DNA from: Nitrosopumilus sp.
Lineage (GTDB): Archaea; Thermoproteota; Nitrososphaeria; Nitrososphaerales; Nitrosopumilaceae
Direction of reading: 5' to 3'
NCBI GenBank assembly: GCA_965205215.1
Contig: OZ242041.1
Coordinates: forward strand, 384,001-448,000
DNA length: 64,000 nt
The notes under the pieces are model-generated. The model was not told the DNA's origin, did not search any database, and worked only from the letters and a program-made list of their open reading frames with translations. Below are positions 82 to 57,941 of the stretch, piece after piece (position 1 is the stretch's first letter; the number at the start of each line of letters is the position of its first letter). Position numbers and translations under genes: made by a program.

Positions 82-162
82 CCCGAGGGATACGGCGGCG
101 CCAGGTCGGGTACGGCGGCGCCAGAACATCTTGCCACCGCGCGCACGCGCAGCCCCATCCGG

Positions 163-966
163 TTACTGCAGCAGGAGCGGCCTGACCTTCCTGCGCACGC
201 GCAGCCTCTGCAGGTTGTCCTGCAGCGCGGCGTAATCGCCTGACGCGTATATCCTCAGGGAGTTCTTGCCGCGCGTCCCGTCCGGACACGCGCCAAGCAC
301 CTCCTTTGCCACGTTGTGCGCGGGGTTTACAAACTGCACGCCGGGATACTCCGACCCCAGAATACCGGCCAGAAACGGCAGGTGCGTGCTTGAGAGCGTG
401 ACCACGTCGATGCCATATCCCGATATCGCGGGATCCAGTATGCGGCGCGCGGCCGCCCTGCACGCCGCGGCGTCCCTCAGGAACAGGCCGGTCTCCACCA
501 TGCGGACAAGCTCCGAGCCATCGATCCGGAAGAACCTAGGGGCTCTGCGCGCGGCCACCCTGTATTCTCGTATCATCCGCGACAACCCCGCCCCTCGTAT
601 TCCGGACGCCGTCCCGAGTATCCCTATCCTTCCCGTATCGGACAGCCGGGCGGCCTCGGCAAGCGGCGGCCTCACCCCGGCCACCAGCATGCCGTCATCG
701 CGTCCGTCCCGTATGTCCAGCGCCAGACAGGGCGTGTTTGAGGCAATCACGACGGCATCGGGCGCAAACCGGCCGCGCAGGCCTGATATCGTCCTGCTTA
801 CGATGCGCCCCAGCTCCGCCCTAGGCTTTGAGCCGTACGGAAAGCTGGCCGTGTCCGCATAGTATATGATCTCGGCCGTCCCGCCCCCGCTTCTGGCAGC
901 CCTGCGGAGCTCCCTGACTATAGACAGTGAGCCCAGCCCCGAGTCGAACACCGCTATCCTAGGCAC
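163..966 (-). CDS. Glutamate racemase (MurI)/Asp-Glu racemase family protein
   Basis: IAVFDSGLGSLS, YYADTASFPYGSK, SNT and STH motifs; both catalytic Cys positions are Ser. Confidence 0.85.
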   Translation of the reverse strand: MPRIAVFDSGLGSLSIVRELRRAARSGGGTAEIIYYADTASFPYGSKPRAELGRIVSRTISGLRGRFAPDAVVIASNTPCLALDIRDGRDDGMLVAGVRPPLAEAARLSDTGRIGILGTASGIRGAGLSRMIREYRVAARRAPRFFRIDGSELVRMVETGLFLRDAAACRAAARRILDPAISGYGIDVVTLSSTHLPFLAGILGSEYPGVQFVNPAHNVAKEVLGACPDGTRGKNSLRIYASGDYAALQDNLQRLRVRRKVRPLLLQ

Positions 967-1070
967 GAACAGGCGGGGGCGGCACTACCTAAGTTTGTTA
1001 GTAAAATTTGGCACTTTGGTTGACAAAAATATACACCGTCCATTAAGTGGGAAGCGCAGCATGGGACGGC

Positions 1071-1739
1071 ATGGCAAACAACTTCGAGAACAACTGGTCT
1101 AGACCAGAGACGCGAAGTGTAACCGAGAAGATTCGTGATGCTGCAAAGCCTCAGGGGGCCCTCAAGCCCCGGATCCAGGCCGCAGTCAACGGACTGCAGG
1201 TCCAGATCTCAAAGATGGATGGCATGCTGGGCAAGCTGCGCGAGAGGGACCAAAGGCTCTTTCAGCGCGTGGTGGCGGCCATGCAGCAGCACGACATCAA
1301 CACCAGCAAGGTACTCGGCAGCGAACTGGCCGAGATACGCAAGGTTACAAAGATGCTAAGCAACATGAGGATGGCGCTCGAGCAGAGTCAGCTCAGGCTG
1401 ACAACCGTCCACGACCTCGGTGACGCAATGATTGCGCTCCAGCCTGCCATGAACACCATGAAGGGACTAAAGTCGTCGCTTGGGAAGTTCATGCCGGAGG
1501 CAGACTCCGAGCTGAACGCCATGACGCAGACCCTCAATGGGCTCATGATGGACTCGCTTGCCGGCGACTCCTTTGGCATGGAATCCGACGTGTCCAGCGA
1601 AGAGACGGAGAGAATCCTGCAGGAGGCCTCGGCGGTTGCAGAGCAACAGATCGGGCAGCAGTTCCCGTCCGTACCGTCCTCGACGGGGCTCTCGTCCCAG
1701 ACGGCGGCTGCGACCAGCACCACAAACTATACCCCGTAG
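1071..1739 (+). CDS. CdvB-like ESCRT-III (Snf7 family) protein
   Basis: Helical Snf7-type protein with LKPRI, ELAEIRK, RLTTVHDLGD and MPEA motifs; paralogous to 52459-53139. Confidence 0.9.
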   Translation: MANNFENNWSRPETRSVTEKIRDAAKPQGALKPRIQAAVNGLQVQISKMDGMLGKLRERDQRLFQRVVAAMQQHDINTSKVLGSELAEIRKVTKMLSNMRMALEQSQLRLTTVHDLGDAMIALQPAMNTMKGLKSSLGKFMPEADSELNAMTQTLNGLMMDSLAGDSFGMESDVSSEETERILQEASAVAEQQIGQQFPSVPSSTGLSSQTAAATSTTNYTP

Positions 1740-1819
1740 GAACGGGACCAACCCCTTCCTTTTTCTTTATTCTCTTCTTCATTTGCCCGCTCACTCATTC
1801 GCTCGTTCGCCCGCTCGCT

Positions 1820-2095
1820 AGTTCATCTGTTCCCGAGGTTCCCCTGCTCGTGGCCAGTCTCAAAGGGAAGCCTTCCCATCCCGGCGGATTGGCCAATGAC
1901 GCGTGCAGCAAAAATCCCAAGATCTGGGAATCGAACGACTCCAGCAGTTGCTGATTAGCCAAAATAAGGTCAAACCTCCCAGATCACCGGGCTTGTCGTG
2001 CAGCCGCAGGTCGCCGTCGGCCACATATGGCGCCCACGGGGCGTGACATGGAGCGAATCCGGCTGGTAACCCCACCTGATACGACTATCATAAGG
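1820..2095. ncRNA. Candidate structured non-coding RNA
   Basis: Intergenic gap with stems 1851-1860/1886-1895, 1921-1929/1977-1985 and hairpin 2077-2090; no convincing ORF. Confidence 0.35.
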
Positions 2096-2168
2096 AACTT
2101 GGCAGCTGCTCGTGCTCCGCGAGCCTGTCGGGTCGCGCCGATGGCGGCCGGCCAGCGGCTCCGCGCGG

Positions 2169-3350
2169 TCAGTCCCACAGGCCCTCTCGAAACGTGAGCT
2201 TTTTGTTGAGCACAAAGTTGCTAAAGGCGGCTGCCGCGATGGCCGCAAGCAGGGCAAGCGGGTACGACACACTGTGCGTGTCCACCAGCCAGTACACGGC
2301 CCCGAGCTGCACCGCGGCGCCAAGCGAGCTGAACGCTGCAAACCTGCCGTATTGCGACAGCGTCCGCTTCAATCCAAAGTCGCGGTCCTCAAACGTCCAC
2401 ACCTTGTTGAGCACAAAGTTGGTCGAGAGGGACGCAATGATCCCAAAGGCGTTTGCCTGCACGTACCAAAAGTCGGCCAGTCCGGATGCAAACAGCATGG
2501 AGACAAGATAGTTGACACCGAATCCGGACGCGCCTACCGTAAAGAACCTGGCGGCTTTTGAGAGAAACCTGACCGACCTGCGCTCCTTGGGGGCGGCCTC
2601 CTTGAGTTTCTTGCTCCTGTACAGCCTCCATACCGCGCGCAAATACTCGGTCACCGTCTGGTACAGGGAGGTGTCAAGCTTGCTTGTGCCCAGCCTGCGG
2701 TTCTCAAACGTGTACGGTATCTCGCGCACCGCTATGTTGTTGTTTGCCTTTACCAGCATCTCCAGCAGGAACTTGTAGCCCAGCGCGTCGAACGAAAGCC
2801 CGTTTATGATGTTCCGCTTGAACGCAAAGAACCCCGACATCGGATCCTTGATCTTTACGCGCAGCCCCAGCTTTGCAATTATGGCCGCGCCCTTGCTTAT
2901 CATCCTGCGCTTCAGCGTCCAGTTTCTGGTGCCGCCGCCCCGCACGTACCGCGATGCCACCACCAGGTCGCACTGGTACTGCCTGAGCGCCTCAAGCATC
3001 CTCGGTATGACCTGCGGCGGGTGTGAAAAGTCCGAGTCCATCACCACGATGGTCTCGGCCTTGGCGCTCTGGATCCCCCTCAGTATGGCAGACGCAAGCC
3101 CGCCCTGCCTTGCCTTGCGGTGTATCACGCTTACGGTATCCTCTGCAAGCCGCCTCAGCCCCTCCACATAGTCGTCGACCAAGCGGCCCGTGCCGTCCGG
3201 CGAGTCGTCGTCGACCACGATGGTCTCGGCCCACACGCCCTTGGGGATGTTCTCGCGTATTGACTTTAGGACTGATATGATGTTCTGCGACTCGTTGTAC
3301 GTGGGGATGATGATCGATACCTGCGGGCTGCTTGCAGGGCGTGTCGCCAT
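2169..3350 (-). CDS. GT2 dolichol-phosphate mannosyltransferase-like glycosyltransferase fused to a GtrA domain
   Basis: IIIPTYNE, VVDDDSPDGT, MDSDFSHPP, DPMSGFF; C-terminal GtrA-like transmembrane domain. Confidence 0.9.
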   Translation of the reverse strand: MATRPASSPQVSIIIPTYNESQNIISVLKSIRENIPKGVWAETIVVDDDSPDGTGRLVDDYVEGLRRLAEDTVSVIHRKARQGGLASAILRGIQSAKAETIVVMDSDFSHPPQVIPRMLEALRQYQCDLVVASRYVRGGGTRNWTLKRRMISKGAAIIAKLGLRVKIKDPMSGFFAFKRNIINGLSFDALGYKFLLEMLVKANNNIAVREIPYTFENRRLGTSKLDTSLYQTVTEYLRAVWRLYRSKKLKEAAPKERRSVRFLSKAARFFTVGASGFGVNYLVSMLFASGLADFWYVQANAFGIIASLSTNFVLNKVWTFEDRDFGLKRTLSQYGRFAAFSSLGAAVQLGAVYWLVDTHSVSYPLALLAAIAAAAFSNFVLNKKLTFREGLWD

Positions 3351-3417
3351 TATACGCCCTTTGAAATGTGTGAATATAAGGGTAGTAATGCGGCGGCGGG
3401 GGCGTCCCGATCGCACG

Positions 3418-4188
3418 TCACGCGCTCTTGCGGCGGCGGGATCGGCTGTGAACCGGCTGTGAACCGGCTGCCGCAGGGGCCCGTCCCCCAGATCTGCGGC
3501 GTCCCGCAGGCTTGGCGGGCGGCGGATCCGCGGCATGCACGTTATTCCTGTAAAAGAGGCACTCTGCGCGTATCTGGCACACCCCGCACATGGGCGAGAC
3601 CGGCTTGCAGATGTTCTGCCCGTACATCACAAACGTGTCGTTTATGCGCAGCCAGTGCCTCCTCGGAACCAGCTTCATCAGGGCCTGCTCCGTCTCCTCC
3701 GGGGTCTTCGTCTCCACGAGCCCCAGCCGGTTTGATATGCGGTGCACGTGTATGTCGACCGGTATCGCGGGCTTTTCAAACGCGTACACCAAAACGCAGT
3801 TGGCAGTCTTGCGCCCCACGCCGGGCATCCCGACCAGCTTGTCGATGTCCTCCGGCACGACGCCGCCGTACTCGGAATCCACTATCTTTGCGACCTCTAT
3901 TATCCTCCTGGCCTTGACGCGGTAAAAGCCGATGGGCCTGATTATGCGCTCCACGTCCCTGATTTTGGCGCCCGCAAGCTCCCGGGCGTCGCGGTATCTG
4001 GCAAAGAGGGCCCTGACCACCTTTGCGGTGTTCTCGTCCTTGGTCCTTGCAGACAGTATGGTGCCGATCAGTATGCTGAACGGCCCGCCCGTCTCGGCCT
4101 CGTGCAGCTCCCTGAGCGCGGTCATGCGGGGCGGCTTGACCGCGTTCATCGTGTTCATCATCCCGTCAAGAATCTTCTTCACGCGCAC
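3418..4188 (-). CDS. nth: Endonuclease III
   Basis: HhH motif MPGVGRKTANCVL, VDIHVHR, C-X6-C-X2-C-X5-C FeS motif. Confidence 0.93.
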   Translation of the reverse strand: MRVKKILDGMMNTMNAVKPPRMTALRELHEAETGGPFSILIGTILSARTKDENTAKVVRALFARYRDARELAGAKIRDVERIIRPIGFYRVKARRIIEVAKIVDSEYGGVVPEDIDKLVGMPGVGRKTANCVLVYAFEKPAIPVDIHVHRISNRLGLVETKTPEETEQALMKLVPRRHWLRINDTFVMYGQNICKPVSPMCGVCQIRAECLFYRNNVHAADPPPAKPAGRRRSGGRAPAAAGSQPVHSRSRRRKSA

Positions 4189-53741: not shown

Positions 53742-53795
53742 TACAATCAGCGGTTCTAGTGCAAATTCGGGAGCTGGGCACGGCGTGATCTTCTT

Positions 53796-53981
53796 TCAAA
53801 CCTGCCGACCTGCTTCCTGCTTCAAGTATTCCCTGACCCATCGCTCCGCCTCGGCCTTGGGCGGATTGCCCTCCCGCGATATGCAGTATATGGCAAAATC
53901 GGCAAGTTGGTCGCCGTCAAGTCCTAATTTCCTTCCGCGCTCCACGAATGCCCTTACCGTACTCTTTTGACCACGGTTCAT
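53796..53981 (-). CDS. Small hypothetical cargo protein (61 aa)
   Basis: MNRGQKSTVRAFVERG...; TATA-like ATTAAGTA about 25 bp upstream. Confidence 0.55.
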   Translation of the reverse strand: MNRGQKSTVRAFVERGRKLGLDGDQLADFAIYCISREGNPPKAEAERWVREYLKQEAGRQV

Positions 53982-54021
53982 GCAGTGATACAAGGCGGCC
54001 GCTACTTAATCGTATCATGTG

Positions 54022-54108
54022 CGCGGGGGGCGGGACTTGAACCCGCGGTTCACGGGGTGTGAAATGTGTTTCGTAGACACACGCTCTACCAAGCTGAGCG
54101 ACCCCCGC
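54022..54108 (-). tRNA. Atypical tRNA with anticodon ACG (Arg) and long variable arm
   Basis: Cloverleaf GCGGGGG-TC-GCTC/AGCTTGGTA/GAGC-G-TGTGT/CTACGAA/ACACA-18-nt V arm-GCGGG/TTCAAGT/CCCGC-CCCCCGC-G; all four stems fully Watson-Crick. Confidence 0.85.
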
Positions 54109-54195
54109 AAAACTTTTTATCACTATGTGGCGTATGAATGATACGGTTGCCGCTGTAGACACGAATACGGGGTGTGGGCGGTATCCGTATCACAT

Positions 54196-55125
54196 TCAAA
54201 CCCGCTGATCGGTGGCAATCAGGTATAGACTGCTGTTCTGAATGATGGTCTTCCACTTGTTGCGGCCCTCGGTGTGTATGCCTGCCGCCTCTGCCGGGGT
54301 CTTGCAGATTGAGTCATGCTTGCGCACGTGGTTATAGTGAACCTTCATGCCGTCAAACACCGGGGTGTGCGGACTCCGCAGGCCCCGAAACGTCTTCTCC
54401 CTATCACGAATAGTACCGTTCAGGCGCTCCATCTTGTTGTTGGACGGGTGGAAGTTGGCCCCGCTTGTCTTGCCGCTTGGGCCTATGCGCTTGCTCCTGA
54501 TTCCGGCATCACACTTGTGGTATGTCTTGTTGCCAAAGATTTTGCGGGCCGCCTTCTGGTACGCGGGCAGCTTGTCGGTGATCAGCACCGTAGGGTTCTT
54601 GCCACCTGCCGCCTTTTTGGTCATGCGAAATATGTTGTCCGCATCGTGCTTGTCCTTTGAATCCGCAAGCTCGCCCGCCAGCCAGTATCTGGTATCATCA
54701 TCCATCGTGGCAAACAGGTAGTGCTTCCTGCCGTCCACCTTGACCCACACCTCGTCCCCGCGATACCACTTGCCCACGTCGGGGGTGAGGCTGTCAGTGT
54801 ACAAAGAGGCAATCTTGGAGTATCGGTCAACCCACCTTCGTATGGTCGAATCATCAACGTCAATGCCGCGTGCCTCGAACAGGTCGGCGACCGCGTAAGA
54901 GCTCATCCCTGAATAGTAGAGATGGATTGCCTCGCTTACGATTGCCGGATCAAACTGCCTGTACCGGAATCCAAAGTTTGCAGTAAACGCCTTGCCGCAC
55001 GCGTTGCATTTGTACCTCTGAACCGAGCCGTTCTTGTTCTTGCGGACGCCGCGCCTCTTGATTTTATCGGAGCGGCAGAACTTGCAGAATGTAATGACAT
55101 CATGGGAGTCAATGTGAGTGCTCAT
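54196..55125 (-). CDS. DDE transposase, IS6-like with N-terminal zinc ribbon
   Basis: CKFC..QRYKCNAC, HTH STIRRWV, GDEVWV / LITDK / NNKMER triad, KTPAEAAG. Confidence 0.9.
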   Translation of the reverse strand: MSTHIDSHDVITFCKFCRSDKIKRRGVRKNKNGSVQRYKCNACGKAFTANFGFRYRQFDPAIVSEAIHLYYSGMSSYAVADLFEARGIDVDDSTIRRWVDRYSKIASLYTDSLTPDVGKWYRGDEVWVKVDGRKHYLFATMDDDTRYWLAGELADSKDKHDADNIFRMTKKAAGGKNPTVLITDKLPAYQKAARKIFGNKTYHKCDAGIRSKRIGPSGKTSGANFHPSNNKMERLNGTIRDREKTFRGLRSPHTPVFDGMKVHYNHVRKHDSICKTPAEAAGIHTEGRNKWKTIIQNSSLYLIATDQRV

Positions 55126-55354: not shown

Positions 55355-55585
55355 ATGGGATCACGTAATCTGAAGACCATCAAGGGCAAGCCGTATCTTT
55401 ACTATGTCATATCCAAGGATGGAAAAAAGAAGGCGATCTACTGCGGGCTGGCATCAAATCACGAATCCGAGAAAAAGGCGCTTGTGCTGGAGCTTGAGGA
55501 AACATCATCGCGTATAAAGTCACTTGAGCTAAAGGCCGTTGAGATAAAATCCAAGCTGGAGGCCTTGCCGGAGGTGCAATCGTGA
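55355..55585 (+). CDS. Small basic putative DNA-binding protein with coiled-coil tail
   Basis: KTIKGKPYLYY..KDGKKKAIYCG beta-hairpin pattern typical of mobile-element proteins; AT-rich promoter. Confidence 0.65.
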   Translation: MGSRNLKTIKGKPYLYYVISKDGKKKAIYCGLASNHESEKKALVLELEETSSRIKSLELKAVEIKSKLEALPEVQS

Positions 55586-55681
55586 TACCGCCAAGCACAC
55601 CTACCGCCAAGCACACCTACCGCCAAGCACACCTACCGCCAAGCACACCTACCGCCAAGCACACCTACCGCCAAGCACACC
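55586..55681 (+). repeat. Perfect tandem repeat, 6 x 16 bp TACCGCCAAGCACACC
   Basis: Units start at 55586, 55602, 55618, 55634, 55650 and 55666; no spacers. Confidence 0.97.
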
Positions 55682-55789
55682 ATAGTTAGCGGGGGGCGAC
55701 CACCATGTCACATATCCAGCAATAGGGGCGCTATAAGTCCACCGGGGGCGGCCTGACTGCCGCCCAAGCCTAACTGGGCCAACCGTACC

Positions 55790-57013
55790 ATGTGGACTGG
55801 TGACAATCTGGACATTATGCGCGGCATGAACTCCGACTCGGTAGATCTCATTTACTTGGATCCTCCCTTTAACAGCAACAAGACATACGAGGCCCCAGTC
55901 GGCTCGGAAGCGGCGGGCGCGGCCTTCAAGGACACGTGGACATTGAGTGATCTTGACATTGCATGGCACGGCTATCTGGCAGACAAGGAGCCCGCCCTGT
56001 ATTCGACAATAGGTACGGCCCGCAGTACGCACGGCAAGTCTATGATGTCATACCTGATCATGATGGGCGTCCGACTTATTGAAATGCGACGCTTGTTAAA
56101 ATCTACGGGTTCAATCTATCTGCACTGCGATCCGACCGCATCACATTATCTCAAGATAGTTATGGATTCGATATTTGGTCATAAGAATTTTAGGAACGAA
56201 ATAGTGTGGTGTTATACTGGGCCCGGCTCTCCAAAAATGCGTCAATTTAACCGTAAACATGACACCTTGTTTTGGTATGTAAAAGGTGAAACGTGGACTT
56301 TTAACACCGATGCAGTGCGCATCAAACATCATGGAAAGACCAAAGAAAATTTTAAGGATGGATTGCGCGGTTCAGGATTCGTAGAAGGAAAATATGGTTT
56401 AGCAGAAGGCAAAGTACCTGAATCTTGGTGGGTTCAAGAGAAAGGCAACGGCTTTGCCATTGCTGCACGACAAAAACATCAATATGTCGGTTACCCTACC
56501 CAAAAACCACTGGCTCTACTAGAGCGAATAATCAAGGCGTCCAGCAATGAGGGTGACGTGATACTCGACCCCTTCTGCGGGTGCGCAACCGCCTGCGTGG
56601 TCGCGGAGCGCCTAAACAGGCAGTGGGTCGGCATCGACCTGTCATCAATGGCGCTTAAACTTGTCAGAAAGAGAATCAAGGAGAGTATCGGCATGTTCGC
56701 ATACGACATAGCAGAACGCGACGACATTCCCAAACGGACGGATCAGGGCAAGATCCCGAATTACCGCACGCACAAGCACGAGCTGTATGGCAGGCAGGAG
56801 GGCATGTGCGTGTGTGGCCAACATTTTCCGTTCAGGAATTTTACCGTAGACCACATCGTCCCGCAGAGCAAGGGCGGCACGGATCACGCAGACAACCTCC
56901 AACTACTATGCGGTGCCTGCAACAGCCTCAAGGGCAACAGGGAGCAGGCATACCTCATTGCCAAACTCAAGGAGAATGGGATCGATGCACTCATGCCCCC
57001 GATACGGGCCTGA
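55790..57013 (+). CDS. Beta-class adenine DNA methyltransferase fused to a C-terminal HNH endonuclease
   Basis: YLDPPF, YPTQKP, LDPFCGC; C-terminal CVC...VDHIVP.SKGG...NLQLLC..CN..KG. Confidence 0.9.
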   Translation: MWTGDNLDIMRGMNSDSVDLIYLDPPFNSNKTYEAPVGSEAAGAAFKDTWTLSDLDIAWHGYLADKEPALYSTIGTARSTHGKSMMSYLIMMGVRLIEMRRLLKSTGSIYLHCDPTASHYLKIVMDSIFGHKNFRNEIVWCYTGPGSPKMRQFNRKHDTLFWYVKGETWTFNTDAVRIKHHGKTKENFKDGLRGSGFVEGKYGLAEGKVPESWWVQEKGNGFAIAARQKHQYVGYPTQKPLALLERIIKASSNEGDVILDPFCGCATACVVAERLNRQWVGIDLSSMALKLVRKRIKESIGMFAYDIAERDDIPKRTDQGKIPNYRTHKHELYGRQEGMCVCGQHFPFRNFTVDHIVPQSKGGTDHADNLQLLCGACNSLKGNREQAYLIAKLKENGIDALMPPIRA

Positions 57014-57094
57014 TTTTTTTGTGCCTATATCACGAATCTGCAATAGTATTCTTTCTTGCCCGTTTATATTGCATCTACGCCCACGTATGACGTG

Positions 57095-57457
57095 ATGTTC
57101 GAAAGCAAAATCTCCGACGACTATGACGACAGACCCATCCCGGACAGCGTACCGATAGGCACGTTGGCGTACAGGTGGTGCCAGCATAGTGGCAATAGAG
57201 AGGCCATACACTACTCGTTCAAGCGATGGTCATTTCCGGGGGACTATGACGAGGATGAACTGAACAGGGCCATAGACGAGTCCCTTGCAAAGTATCCGGA
57301 GGCCCTAAGGGCATTCCTCGAACGCAAGAAAGACGTCGAGGATGATGGGAATCTCATGTGCAGCTATCCGGCAGAGGATCCCACGCGCACGGACGATTCA
57401 GATAGCAGTGCCTCGCAACCGAATTCTCAACAGTACCGTCCCTTGAACACTTATTAA
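57095..57457 (+). CDS. Acidic hypothetical cargo protein
   Basis: TTTATAT box about 26 bp before ATG; open frame to TAA. Confidence 0.6.
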   Translation: MFESKISDDYDDRPIPDSVPIGTLAYRWCQHSGNREAIHYSFKRWSFPGDYDEDELNRAIDESLAKYPEALRAFLERKKDVEDDGNLMCSYPAEDPTRTDDSDSSASQPNSQQYRPLNTY

Positions 57458-57941
57458 CTGACATGCAGGCAAAAGAACGGGGGCGCGATTATCTCTACCC
57501 ATTCTAGAGACGTCGCATTGTCACGGCTTATCGGCCCCCAATTTTCATAATGCGTCTTCATGTTCTGACGCCGTGCCTAGCTCCCGAATTTGCACTAGAA
57601 CCCAATCAGCCCCGGCCGCTTGGCATAAAAAGATAGGCCCCGGCACCGCCCCCGCGCGGGCATCGCGCACCTGCATAACGGTCGGAAACTAGATTGTCCG
57701 GTGCAGTCCAGAACCACCGTCCGGCCCGAGAAAATGCCCGTCCCTCTCATGCCCCTAAAGCATGGCGGTGCACATATTTTCAATTACTGGGTCGTATGGA
57801 CCAAGCCCGGCGCATCTCACGACCCGGGCGTATGTGAAGGGCCGTCTCGGCGTGTGGCGGCGGCCGCAGCAGCAGCGTGTCGGTAGGAGCACGCCGCCGC
57901 CGATCTCAAGATATAAAAAGTGGATTTCCAAGTCGGCAGGC

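Follow-up and report, generated by a model that had tools for sequence, protein, structure and literature searches.

A serine-like tRNA gene with an arginine anticodon inside an IS6-type transposon of Nitrosopumilus sp.

Genetic-code change and deliberate mistranslation both have their raw material in transfer RNAs (tRNAs) with a mismatch between body and anticodon. Natural cases are to our knowledge rare, namely the allo-tRNAs of bacteria, the nev-tRNAs of nematodes and the CUG-Ser tRNA of yeasts. The nev-tRNAs and other eukaryotic variable-arm (V-arm) tRNAs, described by Hamashima et al., reportedly have a 7/5 acceptor/T-stem geometry with a class-II arm on class-I anticodons (Gly, Ile UAU), and are said to be charged according to their body. 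Phage and plasmid tRNAs are also mobile and often serve codons used differently from the host, but their bodies match their anticodons and they supply the cognate amino acids. For the bacterial allo-tRNAs, the passages of Mukai et al. (2017, Nucleic Acids Res; PMC5389517) used here describe serine identity, non-serine anticodons, an 8/4 or 9/3 acceptor/T-stem geometry and, for some of them, insertion of serine at sense codons in E. coli, while passages from the same paper and from PMC7609411 place allo-tRNAs next to toxin-antitoxin systems and a transposon-related open reading frame (ORF). In this study, we analyzed a 64-kb stretch of the genome of Nitrosopumilus sp. (contig OZ242041.1, positions 384,001 to 448,000; the window, meaning this whole stretch), in which a class-II tRNA gene with the anticodon ACG lies inside an IS6-type transposon. 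As judged by comparison with the tRNAs of its host, the ACG tRNA is a serine-like body joined to an arginine anticodon arm, derived from, or modelled on, a serine tRNA.

Full-text search of the literature gave no report of such tRNAs from archaea or carried by IS6 elements (supplementary tables might list some), and no case in which a tRNA with mismatched body and anticodon was shown to lie between the repeats of an insertion sequence and within its target duplication. Such tRNAs were also not found in the portions covered of a thaumarchaeal mobile-element survey (PMC6563490) and of a 2024 mistranslation review. If the ACG tRNA and its like are charged with serine, thaumarchaeal transposons would move codon-reassigning agents between genomes, which bears on genetic-code evolution and on how mobile elements control or burden their hosts. 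Also, annotation is concerned, as such genes now receive names such as tRNA-Arg or tRNA-Ile on the basis of their anticodon only.

The ACG tRNA gene and its body

54022..54108, minus strand: class-II (long variable arm) tRNA gene, 87 nt, anticodon ACG, G73, U20, no encoded CCA (ARAGORN; Rfam RF00005; minimum-free-energy cloverleaf)

ARAGORN predicted a sole tRNA in the window (54021-54108, minus strand) and labelled it tRNA-Arg(acg), and the single gathering-level match to RF00005 covers 54022-54108 on the minus strand (56.3 bits versus a cut-off of 29, E 1.8e-9). Model positions 1-71 are fully matched and the surplus bases form an insertion in the variable region, which identifies the gene as a member of the tRNA family. 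Read on the minus strand, an acceptor stem of 7 bp is followed by U8 and C9, a D stem of 4 bp with a 9-nt D loop (AGCUUGGUA, so that position 20 is U), an anticodon stem of 5 bp with the loop CUACGAA, a variable region of 17-18 nt (one unpaired U, a 5-bp stem UUCAC/GUGAA, a 5-nt loop and two unpaired C), a T stem of 5 bp with the T loop UUCAAGU, and the discriminator G; CCA is not encoded. With more than 10 nt and a stem-loop of its own, the variable region is that of a class-II tRNA. When folded without constraints, the sequence has the same five-arm cloverleaf as its minimum-free-energy structure (z -2.84; -38.6 kcal/mol), with a stability matched by 1 of 200 shuffles. None of the 26 stem pairs is broken, canonical bases occupy the positions of the tertiary pairs, and the features used for decoding are all kept: the 7-nt loop, U33, a purine at position 37, the T loop, G18G19, U8/A14 and the G15:C48 pair. 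Thereby, ARAGORN, Rfam and folding agreed in every detail with the structure given by an earlier sequence-only reading of the locus (a 7/4/5/5-bp cloverleaf, the loop CTACGAA, an 18-nt variable arm with a 5-bp stem, G as discriminator and U after the D-loop GG).

The host genome (2.10 Mb, single contig) holds an archaeal tRNA set with bulge-helix-bulge (BHB) introns, and its Leu(GAG) tRNA is letter-identical to the Leu(GAG) tRNA of three Nitrosopumilus genomes. For comparison of tRNA bodies, the 42 host tRNA genes called by ARAGORN were used, a few of which are doubtful. The closest host match to the ACG tRNA was Ser(GCU) (C1:21681-21765) with 63 of 87 bases identical, followed by a second host tRNA with a mismatched anticodon, described below (58), Ser(CGA) (57) and Ser(UGA) (56); full-length matches in 60 relatives were Ser(GCU) genes only, at 70-71%. 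Acceptor pairs 1-6 of the seven are equal to those of host Ser(GCU). The D loop and those of the three ordinary Ser tRNAs compared from the host are 9 nt long (11 nt in the three host Leu tRNAs compared), position 73 is G as in Ser and not A as in Leu, and the variable arm is connected by one unpaired base on its 5′ side and two on its 3′ side, the same as in Ser. The four host Arg tRNAs called by ARAGORN (UCU, UCG, CCG, GCG) have GGAUA, with A20, and short variable loops, whereas the ACG tRNA has GGUA; its D loop and T arm also differ from those of the host Arg tRNAs. The gene therefore combines the G73, long arm, D loop and acceptor stem of a tRNA-Ser with an anticodon that is not a serine anticodon (NGA or GCU), and the C35 and G36 of a tRNA-Arg with U20 and an 18-nt arm in place of A20 and a short variable loop. 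Because the best host match, the acceptor stem, the D loop, position 73 and the arm connectors are of serine type and A20 is absent, a serine-like body with an arginine anticodon arm is the composition best fitting the comparison. Thus, the chimeric nature proposed by the sequence-only reading (a long-arm body carrying ACG, and U20 where the four host Arg tRNAs have A20) was borne out.

A close copy of the ACG tRNA was not found in the 60 relatives, and an exact 22-mer search gave 0 matches in the searched genome contigs or viral contigs. Metagenome matches to a 20-mer were considered as homologues and rejected; they belong to two ordinary 76-nt Arg(ACG) genes with only the D stem and anticodon arm in common. 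The metagenome contigs L148:1-9552 and L149:1-6253 have 35-39% GC and are densely packed with tRNA genes, 16 in the first and 11 in the second, several of which measure 81-91 nt, and in the ordinary Arg(ACG) tRNAs there the D stem and the whole anticodon arm are those of the window tRNA.

The carrier transposon

The ACG tRNA is part of an IS6-type element of 3851 bp with about 50-55% GC, compared with about 61% outside it. The features of the element and its ends are the following, in order of position.

53744..53751: target-site duplication, left copy, 8 bp, CAATCAGC, read from the sequence
53752..53786: terminal inverted repeat at the tRNA-side end, 35 nt, starting GGTTCTAGTGCAAATTCG, 97% complementary (34/35) to 57568-57602
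53796..53981, minus strand: ORF of 61 aa from ATG, downstream of the tRNA, conserved in a tRNA-less related element (53757-53981, 13 differences)
53982..54234: 253-nt segment with the tRNA and its upstream region, swapped for 74 other letters in an approximately 90-94% identical element elsewhere
54139..54192: imperfect hairpin between the transposase stop and the tRNA, 15-nt arms, 87% complementary, with repeated ATACGG/CCGTAT motifs
54196..55125, minus strand: IS6/IS240-type DDE transposase, 309 aa, intact (Pfam PF13610 DDE_Tnp_IS240, 44.9 bits, cut-off 27)
55355..55585: ORF of 76 aa, from the ORF list
55586..55697: 16-nt tandem repeat, about 6 copies, unit TACCGCCAAGCACACC, between the 76-aa ORF and the methylase-HNH gene
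55790..57013, plus strand: N6/N4 DNA methyltransferase-HNH nuclease fusion, cargo (Pfam N6_N4_Mtase 159.5 bits, HNH 51.4 bits)
57056..57457, plus strand: ORF of 133 aa inside the element, from the ORF list
57568..57602: terminal inverted repeat, other end (inverted-repeat search and sequence)
57603..57610: target-site duplication, right copy, 8 bp, CAATCAGC, read from the sequence and identical to the left copy

The gene order is thus 61-aa ORF, tRNA, transposase, 76-aa ORF, 16-nt repeat, methylase-HNH and 133-aa ORF, with the tRNA gene sharing the strand of the transposase gene and lying 87 nt downstream of it. The assignment to the IS6 family follows from the IS6/IS240-type DDE transposase detected with Pfam together with the terminal inverted repeats and the 8-bp duplication, a length typical of IS6; the best NCBIfam model for the transposase is also the IS6 family, at 106.5 bits and so below its cut-off of 125. 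The inverted repeats are of the type GGTTCT...GCAAATTCG found at the ends of related elements. The 61-aa ORF had no match in Pfam, NCBIfam or Atlas, and the 133-aa ORF also matched no family. Since the tRNA is enclosed by inverted repeats of 35 nt and a target duplication of 8 bp, the transposon carriage suggested by the sequence-only reading is well founded, and the element is, to judge from its near-perfect repeats, perfect duplication and intact transposase, recently inserted and live-looking.

A 19-nt repeat and host transposase remnants were also considered as markers of the element end and rejected, the true inverted repeats lying further out. The remnants are 3′ ends of related IS6-type transposase genes (C1:973195-973323, 652738-652870 and 916595-916641; 76-83% DNA identity), and by this resemblance they are traces of earlier activity of this group of insertion sequences in the host genome.

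Pieces of an element 90-94% identical to that of the window were found in contigs of two runs (X4, X6) from another organism and study. One contig in each of X4 and X6 joins 53981 to 54235, omitting the tRNA segment, and loose ends in X6, where an inverted-repeat end abuts other sequence, indicate other insertion sites. The close relatives L017 and L019 stop about 50 bp past the transposase stop and have no tRNA. Because these related elements (L017, L019, X4, X6) are tRNA-less, the tRNA is regarded as an accessory cassette and not as a core part of the element. DNA homologous to the methylase-HNH gene lies about 700-1800 bp upstream of transposases in L020, L022 and L029, and because of this homologous pairing the association of methylase and transposase appears older than the tRNA insertion. 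The window also encodes a thermosome and a weak, sub-threshold Snf7-type match; at the thermosome loci of 11 relatives, neither the element nor the left-flank gene was present within about 1.1-1.9 kb.

Related long-arm tRNAs in public genomes

Homologues beside related transposases were collected, as the sequence-only reading had proposed, and they proved to have covarying stems and varying anticodons. An odd tRNA, by which we mean one with a long arm and a mismatched anticodon, was found within 2.5 kb at 11 of 73 related-transposase loci in public genomes, with the anticodons UUC, UAA, CAG, UAU, GAA and AUC. At L047, a tRNA(UAU), a methylase, an HNH nuclease and a transposase are all enclosed by perfect 28-nt inverted repeats (88-3419), and at L031, L040 and L069 the tRNA has the transposase on one side and a downstream match to the 8-base inverted-repeat motif on the other; the long-arm tRNA of L071 is an ordinary Leu(CAG) outside the repeat. 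In an alignment of 12 odd tRNAs, 97.7% of the cells were paired, compared with 41-53% in slid controls. Compensatory changes occurred in 21 of 26 pairs, including all five variable-stem pairs, and 0 of 500 shuffles reached any of five covariation measures.

For a census, a covariance model built from this alignment was run on five of the genomes and matches of 81-92 nt were taken; these genomes were picked because they already held transposase-linked odd tRNAs, so the sample is biased, and all census counts refer to the matches listed. Of 55 class-II-length tRNAs, 24 were odd and 31 ordinary, the latter comprising Ser (GCU, UGA, CGA), Leu (UAG, CAG, GAG) and one intron-bearing Val. The odd ones have anticodons of Arg, Ile, Leu, Phe or Asp, namely UAU (5), CAG (5), UAA (4), CCU (3), UCU (2), GAU (2), GAA (1) and AUC (1), and one has a 6-nt loop. 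G73 is present in 23 of the 24 when read from the sequences (the ARAGORN position 73 differs where an 8-bp acceptor was called), and 16 of the 24 odd tRNAs, versus 1 of the 31 ordinary ones, have an IS6-like transposase at a distance of 3 kb or less. Pfam was applied to 15 odd loci and revealed further genes of mobile elements or defence at 11 of them (IS66, rve, IS1595, IS110 and DDE_Tnp_4 transposases, methylase-HNH, AbiE, Eco57I-like) and none at 4. Within subfamilies the tRNA is 90-99% identical, while most flanks are down to about 60-77%. Most odd tRNAs are preceded by a TATA-like box (about -35 to -25) and followed by a T-run, and nearly all have canonical anticodon loops, with at least 10 different anticodons among them. 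By these sequence features, there is a wider, previously undescribed set of serine-type long-arm tRNAs with non-serine anticodons beside or inside mobile DNA in Nitrosopumilaceae-type archaea, and this hints at mobile DNA spreading tRNAs able to misread the genetic code in these organisms.

The second odd tRNA of the host (C1:1241893-1241977, minus strand, equal to L090:6894-6978) is a serine-like class-II tRNA with G73, a long arm and the loop CCGAUGA, with C at position 33, which ARAGORN labelled Ile gat. It sits in a low-GC island (40-56%) together with genes for a TIR-domain protein, an SF1 helicase, a SWIM-finger ORF and a DNA methylase with a ResIII-type helicase. In one subgroup of odd tRNAs, a divergent small ORF (start MTRWKK...) lies about 95-120 nt upstream (e.g., L047:1861-2031, minus strand; also L091, L092, L100, L101, L118, L116, L093, L127, L105 and L123), with repeated or palindromic motifs between this ORF and the TATA-like box of the tRNA. 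The ORF had no Pfam match, and its first Atlas match is a cluster named AbrB/MazE/SpoVT at 0.80, a lead only; from its position it may be a dedicated regulator of the tRNA. At L102:2900-3120, a tRNA(UAU) with a body close to tRNA-Ser(UGA) lies between two IS6-type ends facing away, one of which abuts the TATA-like box of the tRNA while the other begins 9 nt past the gene, a layout like the cargo of a compound transposon or translocatable unit.

The covariation of the variable stem also bears on the nature of the extra arm of the ACG tRNA. If the arm were a non-canonical archaeal intron, the mature product would be an ordinary short tRNA-Arg(ACG). Thaumarchaeota are rich in non-canonical tRNA introns according to the passages used of PMC8450103, and host Val(CAC) (C1:1259788-1259878, minus strand) has a 16-nt BHB intron in its variable loop, which ARAGORN without intron mode drew as a long unpaired arm. 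The ACG tRNA and 63 other class-II-length tRNAs were scanned for BHB motifs with a 4-bp central helix and strict 3-nt bulges, removal of which leaves a variable loop of 3-6 nt. The Val(CAC) intron was recovered as a positive control (central helix UGCG/CGCA, bulges UAA and AAG, 2 outer and 3 inner pairs), as was the homologous intron of 16-17 nt in L115, a Nitrosopumilus genome, so the intron is conserved. For the extra arm of the ACG tRNA, this strict scan, which covers relaxed forms in part, found no spanning candidate. Weak candidates were no commoner in odd tRNAs than in ordinary Ser/Leu tRNAs and are therefore regarded as noise; L126 is ambiguous and may be a true intron case. The arm of the ACG tRNA is a plain 5-bp hairpin with serine-type connectors, the equivalent hairpins covary in relatives, and the rest of the molecule resembles Ser and not Arg. 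An intron, which the sequence-only reading had named as a finding that would speak against it, was hence rejected and is highly unlikely.

Possible function and comparison with known systems

We tentatively favor, with somewhat less than even confidence, a role of the ACG tRNA as a missense tRNA charged by seryl-tRNA synthetase (SerRS) and directed at the rare codon CGU. Its transcription would start at a weak promoter of its own or continue from the transposase gene, which lies 87 nt upstream; RNase P and RNase Z would process the transcript, to which CCA would then be added. SerRS does not read anticodons, and the host has one SerRS gene, at C1:165790 onward, whose product has an N-terminal arm domain; this single enzyme would charge the tRNA via G73, the acceptor stem and the long variable arm. 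A TadA/ADAT-type deaminase was not found in the host genome, which is 95% complete (TadA model 19.4 bits versus a cut-off of 150), and the sole deaminase-fold gene is ComEB-like. As the sequence-only reading had expected of an archaeon, the host thus has no TadA-type wobble editing, and because of this, conversion of A34 to inosine is not expected. The unedited A34 would pair best with CGU, where serine would be inserted in competition with the wobble-reading host tRNA-Arg(GCG); partial charging by arginyl-tRNA synthetase (ArgRS) through C35/G36 might also occur. Transcription, serine charging and decoding of the ACG tRNA are predictions from its sequence. Across 515 long host ORFs, CGU accounts for 5.3% of the Arg codons, or 3.4 in every 1000 codons; since the codon is rare, misreading would have a low cost and a missense tRNA would be comparatively tolerable.

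Several observations weigh against the missense role. The TATA-like stretch upstream of the ACG tRNA is weak (TCATTCATA, about -32 to -24), whereas clear TTTAAT/TTATAA boxes stand at the same place in most host tRNA genes. The nearest related elements are without the tRNA, so the transposon does not need it. The exact ACG tRNA is a singleton, and therefore selection on this particular gene is not demonstrated. G73 is common to host Arg and Ser tRNAs and therefore does not separate the two identities. Without the 10 loci that brought the census genomes in, an IS6-like match remains at 6 of 14 odd tRNAs among the matches listed. Finally, the odd anticodons belong mostly to Arg, Ile and Leu, the codon families that shift most with GC content, a pattern that would also suit cognate codon supply in place of serine insertion.

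The singleton status, the absence from the nearest related elements and the weak promoter would suit a recently captured, functionless passenger, that is a copy of a tRNA-Ser-like gene in which the anticodon arm was exchanged and decay has yet to set in. We consider this improbable, as all stem pairs and tertiary positions have been kept, the related odd tRNAs covary and are far better conserved than their flanks, and a whole anticodon arm with a canonical loop is unlike the product of random decay.

The weak promoter also bears on an unlikely but serious alternative, in which the gene gives a tRNA-shaped RNA that does not decode: an RNase P/Z processing signal on the transposase transcript, a regulatory RNA, or a decoy for tRNA-targeting enzymes or nucleases. 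Given its weak promoter and its position 87 nt behind the transposase gene on one strand, the two genes could plausibly be transcribed together and the transcript cut in the manner of a tRNA precursor. Odd tRNAs sit among restriction-modification, toxin-antitoxin and defence genes, and allo-tRNA(UAU), of the closest bacterial class, is described as inactive in E. coli translation in the passages used of PMC5389517 and PMC7609411. A mere processing signal would have no need of the decoding features kept in the ACG tRNA or of canonical loops across at least 10 anticodons in its relatives, many of which have their own TATA-like box and T-run.

The sharing of G73 and the bias of anticodons concern the possibility of a working Arg or dual-charged tRNA, recognized by ArgRS via C35/G36 despite the long arm and serving the element or the host as a Watson-Crick reader of CGU, which we regard as unlikely. 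Its loop CUACGAA is identical to that of the ordinary Arg(ACG) tRNAs in the metagenomic arrays, G73 is as in host Arg tRNAs, and the odd anticodons are concentrated in the classic rare-codon families Arg (ACG, CCU, UCU), Ile (UAU, GAU) and Leu (CAG, UAA). A20 is absent, however, and D loop and T arm are unlike those of the four ARAGORN-called host Arg tRNAs. Also, the ordinary Arg tRNAs of the host have GCG, UCG, CCG and UCU (ARAGORN) as well as CCU (at C1:494600, added by an Rfam scan), and therefore the ACG tRNA is surplus. The odd tRNAs with Leu anticodons carry G73 and not the A73 of the Leu tRNAs compared; by the known identity rules, G73 on long-arm tRNAs with Leu anticodons points to charging with serine and not with the cognate amino acid. 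In the three main genes of the element, CGU accounts for 4 of 852 codons and 4 of 58 Arg codons, and on this count codon supply was rejected as the explanation. Accordingly, of the three functions offered by the sequence-only reading, aid to the expression of foreign genes was not supported, while the missense role and the decoy or mimic role both stand as candidates.

Returning to the missense tRNA, the only CGU of the transposase gene is codon 240 (window 54406-54408, minus strand). Arg240 belongs to the invariant motif ERLNG(T/E)IRDRE, seven residues past the glutamate taken as catalytic, and the chance of a single CGU landing on it is about 1 in 26. Across 66 copies including that of the window, its codons are AGA (31), AGG (14), CGA (11), CGC (6), CGU (3) and CGG (1), and among 12 matches listed with the form ERLNGTIRDR only the window copy uses CGU. 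In seven other tRNA-bearing transposases, cognate-codon counts showed no difference from tRNA-less ones. A coupling of anticodon to key transposase codon was therefore not retained as a general pattern; only the window element fits it, and it serves as a lead only. In a speculative and distinctly improbable extension, mobile elements of ammonia-oxidising archaea would carry and spread varied seryl-type class-II tRNAs, by which Arg (CGU and AGR), Ile (AUA and AUY), Leu (CUG and UUR), Phe, Asp and Glu codons are redirected to serine, and the transposon would thereby bear a mistranslation or addiction module under the control of a repressor. In such a module, the window tRNA would read the sole CGU of its own transposase at the invariant Arg, so that rising dosage would yield inactive transposase and limit transposition.

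Among described tRNAs, the nearest in body is host Ser(GCU), with which the ACG tRNA has in common the 63 of 87 bases, six of seven acceptor pairs, the D-loop format, G73 and the arm connectors. It differs in the whole anticodon arm (ACG versus GCU) and in the variable stem (5 bp with a 5-nt loop versus 4 bp with a 4-nt loop), and the Ser(GCU) gene is chromosomal with a clear TATA box. Like phage and plasmid tRNAs it is carried on mobile DNA, but its body and anticodon disagree and its element hardly uses the codon. With nev-tRNAs it shares a 7/5 cloverleaf with a long arm and a mismatched anticodon; these are reportedly eukaryotic and chromosomal, with Leu identity and no transposon link. As far as allo-tRNAs are described in the passages used, the likeness extends to the long variable arm, the serine marks, the non-serine anticodon and the mobile or toxin-antitoxin neighbours. 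UAU is the commonest allo-tRNA anticodon in these passages, and among the matches listed here UAU and CAG were each found in 5 odd archaeal tRNAs. Unlike allo-tRNAs so described, with their 8/4 or 9/3 geometry, the ACG tRNA and its relatives are 7/5 and archaeal, and the ACG tRNA is demonstrably cargo of an IS6-type transposon, enclosed by its inverted repeats and target duplication.

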